Shown here: positions 8,768-63,998 of the stretch, one piece after another
Position numbering within the stretch: the first letter of the stretch is position 1
How the letters are laid out: every line of letters starts with the position of its first letter
NCBI GenBank assembly: GCA_024720975.1
Contig: JANJXX010000001.1
Span: 255,408 to 319,407, forward strand
Direction of reading: 5' to 3'
DNA length: 64,000 bases
From: Thermoproteota archaeon
GTDB lineage: Archaea; Asgardarchaeota; Njordarchaeia; Njordarchaeales; Panguiarchaeaceae
The notes under the pieces: generated by a model
The model's input: the letters and a program-made list of their open reading frames with translations, nothing else
Databases searched by the model: none
Told to the model about the DNA's origin: nothing
Program-made: the position numbers and the translations under genes

Positions 8768-8857
8768 TGGGCCCGGCCGGACTCGAACCGGCATAAGGTT
8801 AACCCTGTTGTCCTTCCGGTTATCAGCCGGACGCGCTAGCCACTACGCTACGGGCCC
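8768..8857 (-). tRNA. tRNA-Ile(GAT) with 17-nt intron at 48/49 (8793-8809)
   Basis: Anticodon loop CTGATAA. The insert is flanked by a BHB-like CCGG-AAGG-ACA / CCTT-ATG-CCGG. Confidence 0.92.
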
Positions 8858-14705: not shown

Positions 14706-15044
14706 GGGGGGAGCTTAGGCCTAGCGGGTTTCCATTTCATGGTGGAAAGTCCCCCGCCCCAAATTCAGGCAGGGCGGCGCAAGCCGCGGAGGAGAAATCC
14801 TCCGTAAGGGCAACAGAAACGACACGTCCTCCTGCAGATGCCAATGCGGCAGCGAAGGGCATGGCAACATGCCCGAGTTAACCTGCCGAGAATGCAGGAG
14901 GGAACGATGAAACGAGGCCCTCCCTGAGGGGCTAAGGAATGAACCGTCGGCTGTGAAGCCTGAGCCGACGCGGACCGCTTAGTCTGATCCCGCTAGGGTA
15001 TCAAACCCGAAACAAAAGGGGGCTTATGGGCCTAGGCTCCTCCC
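14706..15044 (+). ncRNA. rnpB: RNase P RNA
   Basis: P1 GGGGGAGCTTAGGCC/GGCCTAGGCTCCTCCC; P4 strands GAAAGTCCCCC and AACAAAAGGGGGCTTA; conserved GCAACAGAAA and GATGAAACG. Confidence 0.93.
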
Positions 15045-36044: not shown

Positions 36045-36863
36045 ATGCAACTAGCTGACAAACCCATCTTAGATGGTAAATTGTACCACATAGCTATCGC
36101 CCCAAACGAGCTTCCCCGCTACATTCTAGTACCAGGTGATCCACAAAGAACTGAGATCATTGCTAACATGTGGGATGAAAAAGAGGAGTTGGCGTACTAT
36201 AGGCAGTACAGAAGCTTTCGGGGAAAGTATAAGAATGCTCCTATAGGAACTGTTTCTACGGGCATTGGGGGGCCAGCAACGGAGATTTGTATCATCGAAC
36301 TACTGTATGCTGGTGCTGATACATTTATTCGGGTTGGCTCTACAGGGGCATTAGTTAAGGATATAGAGCTTGGAGACCTTATTATTAACTATGCAGCTGT
36401 GAGACTTGATGGAGCCTCCCGTGCATATGCACCTCTGGAGTTTCCAGCGGTTGCTAGTCTTGATGTAACACTCGCTTTAATCAAGGCAGCAGAGGCTCTC
36501 GGATACAGATACCACGTTGGAATAGCAGCTAGCACTGATTCCTTCTACGCTGGGCAAGAGAGACCTATCAACGGTTGGCTACCCGATAATCAACGTGGCT
36601 TAATAGAGAGACTAAAACGACTGAGAGTAATCAACTTTGAAATGGAATGCGCTACATTGTTCACAATAGCATCAATTTTTGGAGCCAGAGCTGGTAGCGT
36701 GTGTGCAGTTTATGCGAATAGAGAAACTGGTGATTTCTCAAAGAAGGGAGAAAGCGAAGCATGTAAGGTAGCATGCGAAGCTGTTCGAATACTCTATGAG
36801 TGGGATGAAGAACGCAATCGCCTCAGAAAAGGCACATTTTGGATACCGGAATTATTCAAATGA
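36045..36863 (+). CDS. udp: Uridine phosphorylase
   Basis: YHI, PGDPQR, STGIGGP, IRVGSTG, SFYAGQER and NFEME. Confidence 0.92.
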   Translation: MQLADKPILDGKLYHIAIAPNELPRYILVPGDPQRTEIIANMWDEKEELAYYRQYRSFRGKYKNAPIGTVSTGIGGPATEICIIELLYAGADTFIRVGSTGALVKDIELGDLIINYAAVRLDGASRAYAPLEFPAVASLDVTLALIKAAEALGYRYHVGIAASTDSFYAGQERPINGWLPDNQRGLIERLKRLRVINFEMECATLFTIASIFGARAGSVCAVYANRETGDFSKKGESEACKVACEAVRILYEWDEERNRLRKGTFWIPELFK

Positions 36864-37575
36864 GTATGTCTAGGCCTACTTTAAAGAACCCAATGGTTTC
36901 AGGTAGGTATTTCGAGTAAACAATACGCAACATGAATAGTCCTCTTCTAACTTTTTTGAGAAGTATTAATGTGTCAGTGAATAATTGAAGCACATTCCAG
37001 AATGCCGGAATTGACCCCTCTTTCTTCCAAAATTCCGGTGCGTTCACTTCCTTTGTTATGGACCGCATTTCATCGACAAGCATTAAGATATAATCTCTCT
37101 TATCAAGCAAGTTTCGCAATCCGGCTAAAAAACTGTATACTTCTCTTTTAAGTGCTCCCCGCTTGGCATCTGAGAACTTTCTTGATAGAATCGTTCCGAT
37201 GAATATTGAAGGGAGCGGATCTATAGCCAGAAATATACTTCGGTTCTCGTCCGATTCCGCAATAAGTGTCCTTATGTAATTCAATATAAGATCTGAATCA
37301 GCTAGGCTCGATATCCTGATGTTACTAAGAACATGTTCTGAGATCATGTTTTTCTCGCAAATTTGCTGCAGATCAAATTTCCTGGTGATATTTTCGGGAT
37401 CTATAAGAACGACATTGGCATTAAATAAATCCTCCAAAAATCTTAGTGCCAGTAGCAGCATCAGAAGCGTCTTTCCCGCTCCAGGTGGTCCACAAATAGT
37501 AACAACTTGATTAATAGGTATTCCCCCAAGGCTATCTATGAAGCCAAGTCCAGTCCTGAATTTATTTACTATCAT
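36856..37575 (-). CDS. RecA-superfamily ATPase (RadB/aRadC-like)
   Basis: TGLGFIDSLGGIP, Walker A GPPGAGKT and LIDPE; no RadA N-terminal HhH domain. Confidence 0.8.
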   Translation of the reverse strand: MIVNKFRTGLGFIDSLGGIPINQVVTICGPPGAGKTLLMLLLALRFLEDLFNANVVLIDPENITRKFDLQQICEKNMISEHVLSNIRISSLADSDLILNYIRTLIAESDENRSIFLAIDPLPSIFIGTILSRKFSDAKRGALKREVYSFLAGLRNLLDKRDYILMLVDEMRSITKEVNAPEFWKKEGSIPAFWNVLQLFTDTLILLKKVRRGLFMLRIVYSKYLPETIGFFKVGLDILI

Positions 37576-37587
37576 TTTGGGGTCCTT

Positions 37588-39186
37588 CTAGCAGATCTTC
37601 TTGACCATATAAGGACCCTCAAGCTTATAGCCAAAGCGCCTATAGTATTCCCTAACACCAATTCCACTTAATACAGCGACCTTGACAGCGTCGAAGTCTT
37701 CCGCAGCTACAAGCTCTGCTTCTTTAAGCAGAGAAGCCCCTAATCCTCTATGCTGGGCGCTTTCAGGTTTCCTTTCTCCAATTGGTACCAGAGGTCCGTA
37801 GACATGTAACTCCCTAACGATGGCTGTATTGTGGTTTATTTCAGGTCTATGAGATAAATCTGATGGAATCCTAAGCCTAAGCATGCCAAATATGACATCA
37901 CTCCTCACATCTTCATACGATAGGAAGATCTCAGTACCCATAGATGCCTTGTATTTTCTCTTAACTAACCGGACCTTGCTTATATCAAGTGCGTATCCTT
38001 CCTTTAAAGCTTTGTGACCAACTTCACGACATCTTATACACCTGCAGTGCCAACCTAGCTTTCCCATGTATCTTTTAACAACATCACGAAGGTTTCCGAA
38101 GGAGTATCCTGTTTCAATCAGGTATGTAGGTATATCTCTCTGAACTCTTTGGACTCGTATCCAAGGAGGGAGAAGCTTCTTTATCCTAGCCAATAATTCG
38201 ATTAGTTTCTCCTCAGGATACGGTCTATATTCCCCGCGTAACCACATATCGTATAGTTTAGTACCCGCTACAACAACTGTCGGGTATATCTTTATCATGT
38301 CAGGTCTGAAGTCAGGATCCTCAATTAACATCATAAAGTCCTTAAAGTCTCTTTCCGGACTAGGATCAGGCGGAAGATTGGGCATCATATGAGCTACAAT
38401 CTTGAAACCAGCATCTTTGGCTATCCGAAACGCTCTTTTAGTACATTCTACGTCATGTCCTCTTTTGACAAATTCTAGGACATCATCGAAGAGACTTTGA
38501 ACACCGATTTCTATCCGCGTCGCACCATAGCGAAGGAATTCATCAACATGATATTCAAGACAATAATCAGGTCTCGTTTCGAACGTCAGTTCTACGAGAC
38601 GTCTCGGCGAGGTTTCTAGTGCTTTTTTTAATTCCTCCAGGGAGGAACATAGGCCTCTACGACCTAGGATTCCTTCATAGATTCCCTTCATGAACTCGTC
38701 GCGGTAATCTTTAGGAAGAGCTATAAATGTACCACCCATAACTATAACGCTGATCTTGTCTGGTGGATGGCCTAGACGTTCTATATGTTGCACTCTACGA
38801 ACTATTTGCAGGAATGGGTCATAGTTTAGTTCAGCTGCACGTCTAGCGGCTGGTTCATGACCTGAGTAACTTTTTGGACTTGGGATTGGAGAGAAACCAG
38901 GTCCACCTGGGCAATAGATACAAGAGCCAGGACACCCAGCTGGCTCTGTAAAGACTGAGACTACTATTATTCCCGATATACTTCTTACTGGCTTAGATAA
39001 TATTTTAATCTTCTTTCTTGAGCTAGCATTTAGCCTAGAGAGTATTTCGTGATCTTTGGGAACAAAATTAGCTCGTAGCCTCTTAGCTACATCTACCTTG
39101 ATGCGCTGCAGTAAGTTTTTGTCCACGCTTTCATATTTTTGAAGCTCCCTGATGATTTCTGATATCACCAATTCTCTCTGAGCCAT
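37588..39186 (-). CDS. elp3: tRNA U34 carboxymethylation enzyme Elp3 (radical SAM + KAT)
   Basis: CPGSCIYCPGG, PKSYSGHEP, ETRPD, KIYPT, RELHVYG, QHRGLG and SGIGVREYY. Confidence 0.97.
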   Translation of the reverse strand: MAQRELVISEIIRELQKYESVDKNLLQRIKVDVAKRLRANFVPKDHEILSRLNASSRKKIKILSKPVRSISGIIVVSVFTEPAGCPGSCIYCPGGPGFSPIPSPKSYSGHEPAARRAAELNYDPFLQIVRRVQHIERLGHPPDKISVIVMGGTFIALPKDYRDEFMKGIYEGILGRRGLCSSLEELKKALETSPRRLVELTFETRPDYCLEYHVDEFLRYGATRIEIGVQSLFDDVLEFVKRGHDVECTKRAFRIAKDAGFKIVAHMMPNLPPDPSPERDFKDFMMLIEDPDFRPDMIKIYPTVVVAGTKLYDMWLRGEYRPYPEEKLIELLARIKKLLPPWIRVQRVQRDIPTYLIETGYSFGNLRDVVKRYMGKLGWHCRCIRCREVGHKALKEGYALDISKVRLVKRKYKASMGTEIFLSYEDVRSDVIFGMLRLRIPSDLSHRPEINHNTAIVRELHVYGPLVPIGERKPESAQHRGLGASLLKEAELVAAEDFDAVKVAVLSGIGVREYYRRFGYKLEGPYMVKKIC

Positions 39187-39390: not shown

Positions 39391-40140
39391 TTAATCCTCA
39401 ATAAATAAATCAAGCTTCTGCCCTTTCTTTCCTAGAACCCTATCTATAGTTTCTTGTGAAAGAAGCACTTGAAGAAAGGCCCTTGAGTCACGCAGAAGCT
39501 CTCTGAAGTTTTTGGTTCCTATCTGTTTCGCAAGAAAACTCATAGCCCTAAGTACATAATTTACGACACTGATGCAAAGCTCCAGTCCATAATCTGTGAG
39601 CTTAAATGCTTTTCGGACCATATGATGGGTTGGTGGAATAACTAAGATGTTTGATTTTGATGTCATGTACGCGTCAGATATAATTATAACAGGCTTCGTT
39701 GCTGGTAAGTGATATTCAAGATCTAGTACTTTCAATATTTTATGGTTTAAGCATATTATCGCAGTATCGAAGTCCTGCTCGATCATGTCGTATATCTTGT
39801 TTTTCACCTGAAACCTCTCAAACAAAATTTCTAGCTCCGGTACGCTTAAATTATCGAAGCACTCCTTGATGCTTATCACATAGTCTTCCTCACTTATAAC
39901 TCCATATGGTGTCACTAGGTACAATAGAACCTTCTCGCCAGTGCTCTCTAGTCGCATTACCGCTCTTTGCAGCCTAGTGAACACTGAGTTGTACAAGGCA
40001 CTAGCTACTGAGGGAATATAGCGACCCTCATCCCTAAGCCTTGCTAGGAAGCTGTATATATCCACTTCATCGATATCCCAGACGCTTATCTTGCCTTTAA
40101 TTCCCTCTATACATGGCGATTCAAGGATGACTATATGCAC
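39391..40140 (-). CDS. Hypothetical protein, weak YaaA/DUF6884-like similarity
   Basis: ASALYNS...LYLVTPYGVISEEDYV resembles the A..LY.G...I.S..YG.I pattern of that family. Confidence 0.4.
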   Translation of the reverse strand: MHIVILESPCIEGIKGKISVWDIDEVDIYSFLARLRDEGRYIPSVASALYNSVFTRLQRAVMRLESTGEKVLLYLVTPYGVISEEDYVISIKECFDNLSVPELEILFERFQVKNKIYDMIEQDFDTAIICLNHKILKVLDLEYHLPATKPVIIISDAYMTSKSNILVIPPTHHMVRKAFKLTDYGLELCISVVNYVLRAMSFLAKQIGTKNFRELLRDSRAFLQVLLSQETIDRVLGKKGQKLDLFIED

Positions 40141-40151
40141 CAGAATTCCCT

Positions 40152-40727
40152 CTATAGGTTTATGAAGCTTATGCCCCTTCCAAGCTGTTGAACCACTTTA
40201 CTTTTTTTAGTTGATACTATAGAAAACCATATGAGAAAGATACTTAAGTAATGCGCTATGCCTGCATAAGGAGAATTTTTTATCCAAATTTGCCTCAAAA
40301 TGGGGGGTATACACATAAATGGCGCCCCACCTGTTTCTCTATCGATGATTCTCCTGAACATGAGGTCTTCCTTAGATGTTGGATCATCCGCAAGTCTAGG
40401 TAAAGCTCGTGGATATGTTCTCGGGCATAAAATTGATATTGTAATCTTTTTAAACTGGTCTGAGTGCTCTTCGCCAAGTAGTTTGGTACAGTCAACATCA
40501 ACAAGAAATTTTCCGCCCTTGACATACCTAAGATTTTCAAAAGGTATGTTTTGATTAAACTTTTTCCATGCGGCAAAGGCACTTATCTCTTCTTTAACAC
40601 GGTTGGGGTCCTCTGCAGGGTGTTTATCCACATATATCAATGGTATTTCATCTAGAAAATTCCAGTATCCAACTATGTTTATTCTCAATTCTATTCTCAA
40701 CACGTGAGAGTTACTCATGATTCCCAC
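40152..40727 (-). CDS. UFC1-like ubiquitin-fold-modifier conjugating enzyme (E2)
   Basis: Colinear motifs EIP, RVKEE, CPRTYPRALP, GG..MC139, IWIKNSPYAGIAH and FLIW match eukaryotic UFC1 as recalled. Start may be ATG at 40718. Confidence 0.78.
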   Translation of the reverse strand: MGIMSNSHVLRIELRINIVGYWNFLDEIPLIYVDKHPAEDPNRVKEEISAFAAWKKFNQNIPFENLRYVKGGKFLVDVDCTKLLGEEHSDQFKKITISILCPRTYPRALPRLADDPTSKEDLMFRRIIDRETGGAPFMCIPPILRQIWIKNSPYAGIAHYLSIFLIWFSIVSTKKSKVVQQLGRGISFINL

Positions 40728-41098
40728 TATTTACCTTTTAGTATCGCTTGAGGGGTAATGAGTGTGTACTTCGCTTGCCTGCCACATAGATCGCATTTAG
40801 GCATCTTCGGTTTTCTTCTTGGCCATAGGAGCCACTTATGTTTCGGCGAGATTGACGTTAAGCTTTCAAGACAAAACTCACATATTGTTATTCCTAACTT
40901 AGCCGGTATCATAATGAAGCTCGCATCATGTAACTTGCACACATCACATTTAGTTATGTCTTTAAATATAGGTCGAGGTACTATAAAAGCTGACGCTGCA
41001 AAGCCGAGTAGCGTTAATAGTTCGATACACTTCTTGCAAACTCTGAGGGGCATATCAAGCTCTTTCCTGTCCTCTACTACTATACTCAAATCGAGCAC
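40727..41098 (-). CDS. Double zinc-finger protein (4 x CxxC)
   Basis: CKKC..CDVC and CEFC..CDLC form two similar repeats. The stop overlaps the GTG at the start of the E2 ORF. Confidence 0.65.
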   Translation of the reverse strand: MLDLSIVVEDRKELDMPLRVCKKCIELLTLLGFAASAFIVPRPIFKDITKCDVCKLHDASFIMIPAKLGITICEFCLESLTSISPKHKWLLWPRRKPKMPKCDLCGRQAKYTLITPQAILKGK

Positions 41099-41297: not shown

Positions 41298-43352
41298 ATG
41301 CTAATAAAGCTCTGGGAGCGAAGATTCGACTCTGAGATCAGGGGTATTCATGTAGCTGATATAAATTCTGATGGACTTGATGAAGTGATCTTAGCCAGCC
41401 ACGATTCTAGGATATATGCAATCTCACATAATAAGGTTTTGTGGTCAACTGAAGAACAAGAGTTTCCCGGTGAGAATGTTACGGTTATTAAAACATCCAT
41501 GGGAAAGCCCTACCGCATCGTTGGTTCTTTTCATAAGGAGTTGATATACTTCGATTTAGAGGGAAAAAAACTCCATAAGACATCATTATCCTCCTGGATT
41601 GTGCGTCTGATCAATATCGGTCCTAGTAAGTATGGCATTGATGCACTACTAGCAGTAGACCTCAGGGGAACAATTTATTGCGTTGATCCAGAGGGGAATA
41701 TTTCATGGAGACTTGAAAAGGCGTTTCAAGAGAACAGTCTTAACCGTATGCTATATGGAATAGCTGTTGATAATGAGTTACAAAGAATTTTTCTAGCTGA
41801 TAGGCATGAAATTAAGGTAATAGACTTCGATGGAACTCTAAGACAAACTAAGAGTATAACCCGCGAGGATATTCATGGAATAGCGATAGTTAATATCGTT
41901 CAAGAGAGCCACCACAAAGTAAAGATGCTCGCTGTTGGAACAAGAGGGGGAGTTATCCTCCTTGATCTTGTCACTCTAAAGGAATTGGCGAGGACTGATC
42001 TTGGTTCTAAAAGAGAAACCCGTGTACTGCTATCATGTGACATCAACAGCGACATGAACGATGAAGTATTCATAGGCTCTTGGTCCGAGGATCAAGTGAT
42101 TGTCCTGGAATACAATGAGAAAGAGAAAAAGCTGAAGGAAATAGCAAAATACAACATTGAAGGAAATCCACTCTGCATCCTAGCTGGCGATTTTCGCGGC
42201 TGTTTTCAGAAGGAGATTGTTATCGGAACTGATGGGGATCGCGCCTATGCAGTAATCTGGCCTAAAGACGTTATTGAGCTCGAGGCTAGCGTCTCATTGC
42301 ACAGCATTTGTTTTGGAAATACCTTAGGATATGGTCCACAGGACATTTTACTTAGGTCTAACAAGGAAACAATGACTTGCTATTCTTTTGTTCCGCGCGT
42401 GTGGTCAAAACTCAATAACTTTAATACTCTTGAGGGCATGCTGTATGCAATAATACCATCAACTGCAAAGATTAAGACCGATAAAGTTGTTATACTTGAT
42501 ACGAAAAATCGAAAGGTAGCCAGCGCATCTCTTGATAAGAAAAAGATATCACTTTGTGAGATACCATTTAAGGCAGCGTATAAAGGAGGTATATCCGAAC
42601 TTACTGTTGAAGTTGACAACAAAGCGCTTCTGAGAAGTTTTATTTTAGTCCCAGACACTGGTAAATTGACGGTGCTTACTAGGAGCCTTGCCTTGGCCGA
42701 AGAGGACATTATCACTATAGATGATATAAAAGTCGATAAAAAAGAACTAGAGGTCAAATCCAGAGGACTCGAAATAGTCAAAACCCTTGTCAAGGACAAC
42801 AAACTTAAGCTAGGGGTGGTAAGGAACACTAGTGATATAGCCCGCGTGGAAATTTCAGTGTACTCTTACAACGAGCAAAACAAAGAGAGACAAATGATGC
42901 TAAAATACAATTTCATGGTAGTTCCATTGGAAACATTACGTGCTGAGTTACAAATTGATGAGATGATCACTACCGAAGACGCTATAACTCTCCATTTGCG
43001 GAATAACTCTGGAAAAGAGATACCATACAATATCATCAGCGATGGTCCCCTCAATATTAAAGCTTCTGGCGAGCTTTTGCCCCATTCAGAGAAACCCGTG
43101 AAACTTACAATTTCAGTAAAATCTGATGAACTGCAGATTGAAGTAAACCAGGTTCTAGATCTAACGTATGGAGATTACTTAAGGAGGACAATCAAAATCC
43201 CGATTAGATCTCGCGTACTGAATGTAAGCGCTATCAATGAGCGCGCTAGACGGATATATGCGGCTACCAAAGACCTAAGAGTCGTTTTCGAGACTCTGAG
43301 TAAAGATTTGAATTTGTCCGAAGAAGTTCTTAAGAAGGTCGTAAGATTGTAG
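41298..43352 (+). CDS. Cytoplasmic FG-GAP/VCBS-type beta-propeller protein with C-terminal beta-sandwich domains
   Basis: ADINSDGLDEVILAS, CDINSDMNDEVFIGS and AGDFRGCFQKEIVIGT blades; no signal peptide or TM segment. Confidence 0.7.
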   Translation: MLIKLWERRFDSEIRGIHVADINSDGLDEVILASHDSRIYAISHNKVLWSTEEQEFPGENVTVIKTSMGKPYRIVGSFHKELIYFDLEGKKLHKTSLSSWIVRLINIGPSKYGIDALLAVDLRGTIYCVDPEGNISWRLEKAFQENSLNRMLYGIAVDNELQRIFLADRHEIKVIDFDGTLRQTKSITREDIHGIAIVNIVQESHHKVKMLAVGTRGGVILLDLVTLKELARTDLGSKRETRVLLSCDINSDMNDEVFIGSWSEDQVIVLEYNEKEKKLKEIAKYNIEGNPLCILAGDFRGCFQKEIVIGTDGDRAYAVIWPKDVIELEASVSLHSICFGNTLGYGPQDILLRSNKETMTCYSFVPRVWSKLNNFNTLEGMLYAIIPSTAKIKTDKVVILDTKNRKVASASLDKKKISLCEIPFKAAYKGGISELTVEVDNKALLRSFILVPDTGKLTVLTRSLALAEEDIITIDDIKVDKKELEVKSRGLEIVKTLVKDNKLKLGVVRNTSDIARVEISVYSYNEQNKERQMMLKYNFMVVPLETLRAELQIDEMITTEDAITLHLRNNSGKEIPYNIISDGPLNIKASGELLPHSEKPVKLTISVKSDELQIEVNQVLDLTYGDYLRRTIKIPIRSRVLNVSAINERARRIYAATKDLRVVFETLSKDLNLSEEVLKKVVRL

Positions 43353-44347: not shown

Positions 44348-44998
44348 TTACTGGGGATTCCGCTTTAAGGAGGTAAAACTTCGACCAGCCAGCAGTAAAT
44401 TAATGCACTCCTTATTGGTGTACTTTCCGTCTTCGAATTTTGCCAGACATATTTTCCTGACCCTTGAAATTCTCTCGATTCTAAGGAAGTTGAAACCGAA
44501 CTTTAGATAGTATTTGAACCAAAAAGGTCTTCCTTGGTATACATTCTCGATGGTAGTCACTATAAAGACGCAGCCAAGCACTTCCGAAAATATCTTGCCC
44601 AGTAATAGGAATTTAGATATTTTCTTTTCCATTTCCATGCTGCCAGTATGTTTTATAAGCGCATCGCGGGGAACTATATCATCTATCAATATAGCCACAT
44701 TTGGCTTTGTAACGCCATTTTTATTAATCTCATCCAGTACCTCAAGTAGCGTTTCTCTAAGTAAGTTAGAATATTCATTAAGGGAAACATCTTCGTAAGC
44801 GCAAATTAATTTGATTCCCTTGGGAACACTGCTGAGTTCTTCCCTTACGATCATAAAAACCCTATAGTTCAAATATTCAACTAAAAATCTAGCAAGTGCA
44901 AGAAGAAGGGCTGATTTACCGACTCCACGCTCACCAAAGATAACCAGAGGGGAGTATTCCAGTACACTCTTTAAGAAGTTTTCGAACTCTAGCTGCAA
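44348..44998 (-). CDS. Short RecA-like P-loop ATPase
   Basis: Walker A GERGVGKS and Walker B ILIDD. Confidence 0.65.
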   Translation of the reverse strand: MQLEFENFLKSVLEYSPLVIFGERGVGKSALLLALARFLVEYLNYRVFMIVREELSSVPKGIKLICAYEDVSLNEYSNLLRETLLEVLDEINKNGVTKPNVAILIDDIVPRDALIKHTGSMEMEKKISKFLLLGKIFSEVLGCVFIVTTIENVYQGRPFWFKYYLKFGFNFLRIERISRVRKICLAKFEDGKYTNKECINLLLAGRSFTSLKRNPQ

Positions 44999-63889: not shown

Positions 63890-63998
63890 GCCGCCGTGGC
63901 GTAGGGGTTTGCGCGCCGGACTCATAATCAGCCTGTCATGGGACGTAAGAGCCGAACCCAACATCCGGAGGTCGCGGGTTCGAGTCCCGCCGGCGGCA
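63890..63998 (+). tRNA. Elongator tRNA-Met(CAT) with 36 nt of intron sequence (two tandem 18-nt introns)
   Basis: GCCGCCG/CGGCGGC-A; CCGGA-CTCATA[36 nt]A-TCCGG. Confidence 0.9.

Follow-up and report, generated by a model that had tools for sequence, protein, structure and literature searches.

A divergent UFC1-type E2 with a constant zinc-ribbon neighbour in Njordarchaeales, and candidate partners for a possible UFM1-type cascade

The window analysed here is a stretch of 64,000 nucleotides from an assembly labelled Thermoproteota archaeon (GTDB: Asgardarchaeota, Njordarchaeales; GenBank GCA_024720975.1, contig JANJXX010000001.1, positions 255,408 to 319,407). Its minus strand carries two adjoining genes of interest: one for a protein resembling UFC1, the E2 of the eukaryotic UFM1 pathway (40152..40727); and, directly upstream, one for a small protein with four CxxC pairs (40727..41098), here called the zinc protein. 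Read from GTG 40727, the E2 has 191 residues, and this start overlaps the stop codon of the upstream gene by one base. A relative that is 98% identical, P0002, begins MSNSH, which corresponds to an ATG three codons after the GTG; the true start is therefore probably ATG 40718, for a protein of 188 residues. The zinc protein, 123 residues as listed, probably has 120, from TTG 41089, and its copy in the ESM Atlas begins at residue 4.

An earlier reading of the DNA alone (the original prediction) had called the downstream gene a UFC1-like E2 from a series of ordered motifs. The open reading frame (ORF) is present, and it contains all of them in that order: DEIPLI (residues 26-31), RVKEE (43-47), CPRTYPRALP (101-110), PTSK (116-119), LMFR (122-125), GGAPFMCI (133-140), IWIKNSPYAGIAH (147-159), and FLIWF (164-168). 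The predicted thioester-forming residue is Cys139, whose codon occupies 40311..40313 on the minus strand. The HPN motif, said to be missing, is indeed not found between the YP motif and the cysteine (residues 100-139).

Pfam UFC1 (PF08694) is the sole Pfam match of the E2, at a score below threshold (E 0.0025, 17.9 bits), and aligns positions 5-137 of the 155-position profile with E2 residues 25-165. The UQ_con profile (PF00179) gave no match at E up to 1. A single-sequence search of the PDB returned 19 matches, every one of them UFC1. Six of eight family members match Pfam UFC1 at E up to 1 (best E 4.4e-6), and a profile of eight family sequences reaches the UFC1 chains in the PDB at E 4e-4. 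A larger alignment, A4, consists of 18 family sequences gathered from genomes. Its profile found 26 matches among PDB sequences, again all UFC1 (best E 3.8e-9), with profile positions 28-161 aligned to UFC1 residues 12-141; the proposed colinearity with UFC1 extends across that whole span. The proposed catalytic cysteine also stands: Cys139 falls on UFC1 C116 in every HMMER alignment and is invariant in all 18 sequences. With the A4 profile, chains from PDB entries whose titles name the UFC1 C116E mutation score lower than the other UFC1 chains, by about 5 to 10 bits.

The kinship is nevertheless distant, with an identity to UFC1 of about 20%. A word-based search for relatives of the E2 yielded four clusters. 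When 1.84 billion representatives were searched exhaustively with a profile, four clusters again appeared, all from the protein's own family (adding P0006-P0008), and eukaryotic UFC1 was absent from the matches at E up to 0.001. Two other archaeal UFC1-like proteins, used as queries in word-based searches, found near-copies only, and zero eukaryotic sequences. Judged from sequence, the resemblance of the E2 to UFC1 is greater than chance would give.

Invariant in all 18 family sequences are P37, R43, E47, F51, P62, F63, L66, F74, Y105, P106, P110, T132, C139, G156, I157, H159, and L161. Like eukaryotic UFC1, the E2 keeps the YP...P motif and lacks HPN; after the catalytic cysteine, the spacing to a tryptophan and to an (A/F)G(I/L)AH helix is equal in the two. 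Unlike eukaryotic UFC1, the E2 carries a seven-residue insertion ahead of the cysteine (as placed by HMMER) and an invariant Thr132 seven residues upstream of Cys139. One proposed correspondence fails. The TSK of the archaeal protein had been suggested to stand in for the TAK of UFC1, but HMMER pairs S118-K119-E120-D121-L122 with UFC1 G104-K105-T106-A107-K108, which sets E120-D121-L122 on the TAK residues, and this stretch is variable across the family.

Structure prediction leads to the same protein. An early AlphaFold model from five close sequences was unusable (pLDDT 55), which the eight-sequence alignment remedied: the resulting model reaches a pLDDT of 74.9 and a pTM of 0.73, and its core is confident at about residues 30-170. 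Residues 1-23 fall below pLDDT 50, and no helix is predicted ahead of residue 41; UFC1 itself has an extra N-terminal helix, and the A4 alignment begins at UFC1 residue 12. In a Foldseek search of the PDB, ranks 1-29 are all UFC1 (E 1e-5 to 1e-3, TM 0.5-0.6); RWD and UBC entries follow at E of at least 0.05, those for RWD at 0.1 or higher. VIA-align gives human UFC1 (7nvk) Z 13.8, with 141 residues aligned at an rmsd of 3.7, and Leishmania UFC1 (3kpa) Z 13.0. The best E2 that is not a UFC1 has Z 7.1, and the bacterial E2s lie lower: Cap2, Z 5.3; a chain of the BubCD complex, Z 5.2; and a chain of an E1-E2-Ubl complex, Z 4.6. Eukaryotic UFC1 also makes up the two closest clusters in the ESM Atlas (TM 0.59/0.66 and 0.58/0.71); beyond the UFC1 clusters, row-normalised TM falls to about 0.43-0.55, and Prok-E2_A stands at TM 0.40/0.53.

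The nearest structures are thus UFC1 rather than generic UBC, RWD, or bacterial E2 folds, and Cys139 takes the active-site position. The core fold is that of eukaryotic UFC1 (for example, PDB 2z6o, 7nvk, 3kpa), by far the closest structure. Non-catalytic E2 folds (UEV, RWD) lack the active-site cysteine that is invariant here. The E2 is very probably a true, if divergent, homologue of UFC1.

Where does this family occur? Public contigs with E2 relatives are titled Candidatus Njordarchaeota, which the NCBI taxonomy places within Promethearchaeati, the Asgard archaea, and DNA of the locus recurs in hot-spring metagenomes from several studies. The genome that carries the window's E2 (G000) comprises 1.36 Mb in 29 contigs and is 81% complete. 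With this genome included, the E2 family profile finds the gene in 12 of 13 Njordarchaeales genomes of families f1-f3; aside from G000, the counts are 4/4 in f1, 1/1 in f2, and 6/7 in f3. None was detected in the single small f4 genome, nor in 27 other genomes of the phylum. The zinc-paired E2 family was accordingly found only in the order Njordarchaeales.

In each of the 16 loci examined, the zinc-protein gene immediately precedes the E2 gene, overlapping it or within a few tens of bases. Its product is 110-127 residues long across these loci, apart from one locus in which it is called as 152 residues. The layout is C21xxC24-x26-C51xxC54-x18-C73xxC76-x25-C102xxC105, and the eight cysteines are invariant, as are F38, A59, P65, G69, and W89. 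Such a layout reads as two tandem zinc ribbons. Pfam matches among 15 members are all weak: DUF4428 in 11 (best 6e-7); YyzF in 11; and RING-type models in seven. No informative relative was retrieved from the ESM Atlas. The protein is like RING-type E3 zinc fingers in its eight cysteine ligands, here four CxxC pairs, and in the adjacency of an E2 gene. A cross-brace RING was considered and rejected, because 18 residues separate the second and third cysteine pairs, in place of two or three; moreover, the RING models in those seven members are sub-threshold, against DUF4428 in 11. The eukaryotic UFM1 pathway has no counterpart of this obligatory double zinc-ribbon partner. A complex prediction for the E2 (A4) and the zinc protein (A5) scored 0.01, which carries no weight either way. 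The strict gene pairing makes it reasonably likely that the zinc protein is a physical partner of the E2; an E3-like function is doubtful.

The original prediction had seen no UFM1-like modifier or E1 in the window. ORF and Pfam analysis likewise found no E1 or JAB gene in the neighbourhood of the E2. Candidates do exist elsewhere in the same genome. The first is a UBA5-like E1 of 255 residues (contig C27, 56427-57194), whose best PDB match is UBA5 (E 6e-27, 98 bits; MoeB follows at 2e-14, 57 bits). Its 'TCNVSLPTT' aligns with the catalytic 'VCAASLPTT' of UBA5, so the catalytic cysteine is kept.

The second is a UFM1-like tag, a 113-residue ORF (contig C19, 117379-117720) that ends in ...AEMLG, where Gly108 is the single terminal glycine, followed by a five-residue tail, ITGST. 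Its Atlas model compares with a eukaryotic Ufm1 cluster at TM 0.64/0.81, the highest row-normalised TM among the matches listed. Its orthologues, from 11 further genomes of the order, stop exactly at a conserved ...(E/D)MLG, or one to five residues past it. Ubiquitin is matched by the tag profile over 28 residues only. The third candidate is a JAMM-like protease of 240 residues with an HSH...S..D motif, encoded by the gene after the tag (C19, 117796-118518); across the order, most genomes place it next to the tag. Larger homologues of the protein, encoded beside UFC1-like genes in other families, pass Pfam Prok-JAB.

Copy numbers are simple in the genus of close relatives, g1. In the genome of the window, a UFC1-like E2, a tag of this family, and a zinc protein each occur exactly once; each g1 genome has one E2, one tag, and only one E1 match at orthologue level (E 1e-99 or lower), with a second, weak match of ThiF type in two of these genomes (E about 1e-21 to 1e-23). 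Families f2 and f3 hold extra E1 copies. Genome G007 has zero matches to E2, tag, or E1. Given the one-copy counts in g1, the simplest pairing for the zinc-paired E2 is the E1/tag set common to f1 and f3.

Other members of the order and phylum provide the gene linkage. In genome G009 of family f3, an operon runs E1, UFC1-like E2, tag; compared with the genome of the window, its E1 is 43% identical (E 4e-67), its E2 32% (E 2e-8), and its tag 29% (E 2e-5). Orthologous E1 and tag genes lie 0.5-2 kb apart in f3, within the gene order PriL, UBA5-like E1, coiled-coil protein, tag, Sec61beta. The genes for tag and Sec61beta are either fused or immediately adjacent, tag first, in sister genomes. The fusion is seen in G012 of f3 (L056:1225-1803, plus strand), where tag and Sec61beta form one in-frame protein of 192 residues (Pfam Sec61_beta, 47.5 bits, residues 152-187). 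In G009 they are adjoining ORFs about 20 nt apart (L072:461-1006, minus strand). This arrangement recalls the fusions of ubiquitin with ribosomal proteins, and also the link between eukaryotic UFMylation and the Sec61 translocon.

Across 301 genomes of the phylum, Pfam UFC1 matches occur in 17, from three other families, and 13 of these pass the cut-off; Pfam Ufm1 finds nothing over its cut-off in the same 301, and this model appears too narrow for archaeal tags. Most UFC1-like E2s of other families are recognised by the Njord family profile. Several are fusions, with a UFM1-like domain that ends in ...IVG (...EVG in L078) followed by a UFC1 domain: L077:1462-2283 (minus strand), L080:1162-1980 (plus), L090:1186-1998 (plus), and L078:977-1753 (plus). 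The L077 protein scores 39.4 bits on Pfam UFC1 and is encoded beside a UBA5-like E1 gene; L080 and L090 lie beside JAB-like genes.

The paralogue B proteins of f3 (for example, L046:6209-6736) are homologous to the window's E2, at 32% identity (E 2e-8). They and the fusions share its type of system, with UBA5-like E1, UFM1-like tag, and JAB protease; they are linked or fused to E1 or tag and lack a zinc-ribbon neighbour. The window's paralogue, in contrast, is unlinked from E1 and tag, always lies beside the zinc-protein gene, and is the only UFC1-like E2 found in g1. In a tree of archaeal sequences only, without an outgroup, the Njord groups are separate from the clade of other families; three paralogue groups occur within the order, of which B and C form groups and the zinc-paired one has weakly supported monophyly. 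Such a tree has no bearing on where eukaryotic UFC1 came from. In G009, a third Njordarchaeales paralogue of UFC1 (L047:5791-6414, plus strand; 207 residues) passes Pfam UFC1 at 32.4 bits; its gene directly follows one for a radical-SAM protein, and the window's E2 unit lies just upstream of the radical-SAM gene elp3.

Downstream of the E2 on the same strand, the transcription unit continues in genus g1 only with a third gene, for a DUF6884/YaaA-like protein of 249 residues (39391..40140). This protein has no Pfam match, and its Atlas structure is close to DUF6884 clusters (TM 0.72/0.77). Domains of tRNA-guanine transglycosylase (TGT) occur in some of those clusters, a hint that this neighbour may act in tRNA modification. 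The gene follows the E2 in close relatives and is not found there in family f3. Elp3 itself (37588..39186, minus strand; Pfam Radical_SAM_C, Radical_SAM, and ELP3_N) begins 205 nt downstream of the unit. Elp3 proteins combine radical SAM and GNAT domains and act in tRNA modification. None of the neighbours beyond the E2/zinc pair extends across the order, which leaves that pair as the conserved unit.

These observations suggest a general model in which a UFC1-type E2 works in a dispersed UFM1-type cascade with a new zinc-ribbon partner. Overall this is the best reading and a fairly likely one. The UBA5-like E1 would adenylate the C-terminal glycine of the UFM1-like tag, after the adjacent JAMM-like protease had, probably, trimmed the five-residue tail to expose that glycine. 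The E1 would load the tag onto its own cysteine and then hand it to Cys139 of the E2 as a thioester, from which the E2 would transfer it to target lysines. The zinc-ribbon protein, presumably co-translated, would be a fixed partner (adaptor, minimal E3, or regulated substrate) that directs or regulates transfer. The parts of the model differ in strength. The E2 is probably a working enzyme that forms a thioester; that it is fed by this particular E1 and tag is a proposal toward which we lean slightly. The original prediction, of a UFM1-type cascade in this archaeon, stands insofar as candidate partners are present; thioester formation, targets, and the suggested link to ribosomal uL24 are inferred from homology and gene linkage only.

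Several results weigh against such a cascade. The E2 does not reach the Pfam UFC1 gathering cut-off (17.9 versus 25 bits), and it lacks the TAK motif of UFC1. Eukaryotic UBA5 has a C-terminal extension that carries the UFM1- and UFC1-binding sequences, for which an E1 of only 255 residues has no room; E1-E2 recognition would therefore have to differ. With a short E1 and no TAK motif, both recognition and catalysis may differ in detail from those of eukaryotic UFC1. The tag alone has no Pfam match and no significant single-sequence match in the PDB; a 15-sequence tag profile does match UFM1 residues 20-83, up to the terminal glycine, but the match is weak (E about 0.08). In this genome, the E1, tag, and E2 genes are spread over three contigs, so that their pairing rests on co-occurrence together with the operons of relatives, and the E1-E2-tag operons of f3 use a different E2 paralogue from that in the window. 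Finally, Pfam Ufm1, Peptidase_C78 (UFSP), and ubiquitin give no match in this 81%-complete genome; DDRGK matches twice below threshold (at 16.9 and 14.1 bits), and UFL1 once, at 16 bits. No clear UFL1, DDRGK1, CDK5RAP3, or UFSP was found in it, and since the genome is incomplete and the sequences divergent, these partners cannot be counted as absent.

Other explanations must be set beside this one. An active UFC1-like E2 might serve a different modifier, because the genome encodes at least three further ThiF-family proteins. One, on contig C25, is ThiF/MoeB-like and could activate a SAMP/ThiS-type tag. Another is the last product of a separate four-gene operon on contig C11 (L035:6484-10514, equivalent to C11:34483-38513; minus strand; about 217 kb before the window), which encodes in order a 143-residue ORF, a 455-residue ORF, a JAB protein of 269 residues, and an E1 of 479 residues with ThiF in its C-terminal half; the first two ORFs have no Pfam match. 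The link between the window's E2 and the UBA5-like E1 is an indirect one, which leaves some room for this view. Against it, the tag profile (A7) matches no other ORF of the genome, and wherever UFC1-like E2s are gene-linked in the phylum, their neighbours are UBA5-like E1s, UFM1-like tags, or JAB proteases. SAMP-type systems are not known to use an E2. Service to another modifier is thus unlikely. Quite improbable is a non-conjugating pair, in which the E2 fold and the zinc protein act as a structural or regulatory unit tied to tRNA modification. The g1 unit does run into the DUF6884-like gene, with its TGT-bearing relatives, and then Elp3, and the third paralogue of G009 also adjoins a radical-SAM gene. 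That neighbourhood, however, is confined to g1 (for Elp3, to its closest members) while the E2/zinc pair is order-wide, and the invariant cysteine at the UFC1 catalytic position is missing from non-catalytic UEV and RWD folds.

Two further alternatives concern the E2 alone, and both are scarcely credible. UFC1 has been described as exclusive to eukaryotes (PMC10183829), which would favour a recent transfer from a eukaryote or a contaminant in the assembly. The base composition speaks against either: G+C is about 40% throughout, and even across the locus (about 0.38-0.44). So do synteny in 12 of the 13 searched Njordarchaeales genomes (G000 among them) from three families, an identity to UFC1 of just a fifth or so, three paralogue groups within one order, and recovery of the same DNA from hot springs in separate studies. 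Alternatively, the protein could be a generic prokaryotic E2 (Bil/Bub/Cap2 or Prok-E2) with superficial likeness to UFC1. These proteins do share the E2 fold and appear in the structural comparisons, but far down the lists (at the Z of 4.6-5.3 and TM of 0.40/0.53 given above); UFC1 scores about twice any bacterial E2, and the sequence profiles match UFC1 alone.

The preferred reading, a UFC1-type E2 in a UFM1-type cascade, meets a literature in which UFMylation is described as a eukaryotic pathway of mosaic origin, with UBA5-like enzymes widespread. UFM1, C53, UFC1, and UFSP2 were stated to be seen only in eukaryotes (Picchianti et al. 2023, PMC10183829). Ufm1 homologues have since been reported from nine Asgard clades in a 2026 Nature Microbiology paper that does not mention UFC1 (PMC12962969), and homologues of UFL1 and DDRGK1 are also reported in Asgard archaea (PMC12962969; PMC10183829). 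These homologues share both pathway and archaeal superphylum with the protein described here; they are the tag and E3 scaffold proteins, not the E2. They favour an origin of parts of UFMylation before eukaryotes. A literature search found no paper that otherwise links UFC1 with Asgard archaea. What is new here is a UFC1-type E2 that is divergent, restricted to one order, and invariably accompanied by a zinc-ribbon partner.

A recognisable UFC1-type E2 family in Njordarchaeota, alongside a UBA5-like E1, a single-glycine UFM1-like tag, and a JAMM-like protease, would move the core E1-E2-tag triad of the UFM1 pathway into archaea. As a new element, the zinc-ribbon partner could reveal how an E2 of this type reaches its targets without a UFL1 complex. 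The proteins are small and, as their DNA comes from hot springs, presumably thermostable, and so are suited to direct reconstitution. A bolder proposal, and an unlikely one, is that the double zinc-ribbon protein is a minimal E3 or adaptor for the UFC1-type E2 and that the Njordarchaeal UFM1-like pathway acts at the ribosome or Sec translocon, on which the tag-Sec61beta linkage bears. If true, a translocon-linked, UFMylation-like function would have been present in Asgard archaea before eukaryotes.

The window holds several other features. Divergent from the E2 unit, across a common intergenic region of 200 nt, is a gene for an FG-GAP/BBS-like beta-propeller of 684 residues (41298..43352, plus strand; Pfam Beta-prop_CGLA 3.6e-17, FG-GAP_3). 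Only the closest g1 relatives (L007, L014, L025) retain this gene and elp3 at these positions. The propeller was not adopted as part of the system, since the large divergent ORFs at L028, L030, and L031 have no FG-GAP Pfam match. FG-GAP proteins with weak BBS2/BBS7/Itfg2 propeller matches nevertheless flank both tag-system loci, that of the window (41298-43352, plus strand) and that of the C11 operon (L035:13923-15578, minus strand), and both are described as cytoplasmic. Also upstream of the C11 operon, on the same strand as this second propeller, are genes for a 450-residue protein (the 16-bit UFL1 match, E3_UFM1_ligase) and a Vps4-like AAA ATPase.

Two small P-loop ATPases are encoded on the minus strand: one RadA/KaiC-like (36856-37575), kept after Elp3 in close relatives; the other (44348-44998) matching the archaeal ATPase_2 family. 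Archaeal RNase P RNA lies at 14712-15038. Two tRNA matches, of 90 nt (8768-8857, minus strand) and 109 nt (63890-63998, plus strand), are over-long, which suggests intron-containing tRNA genes.

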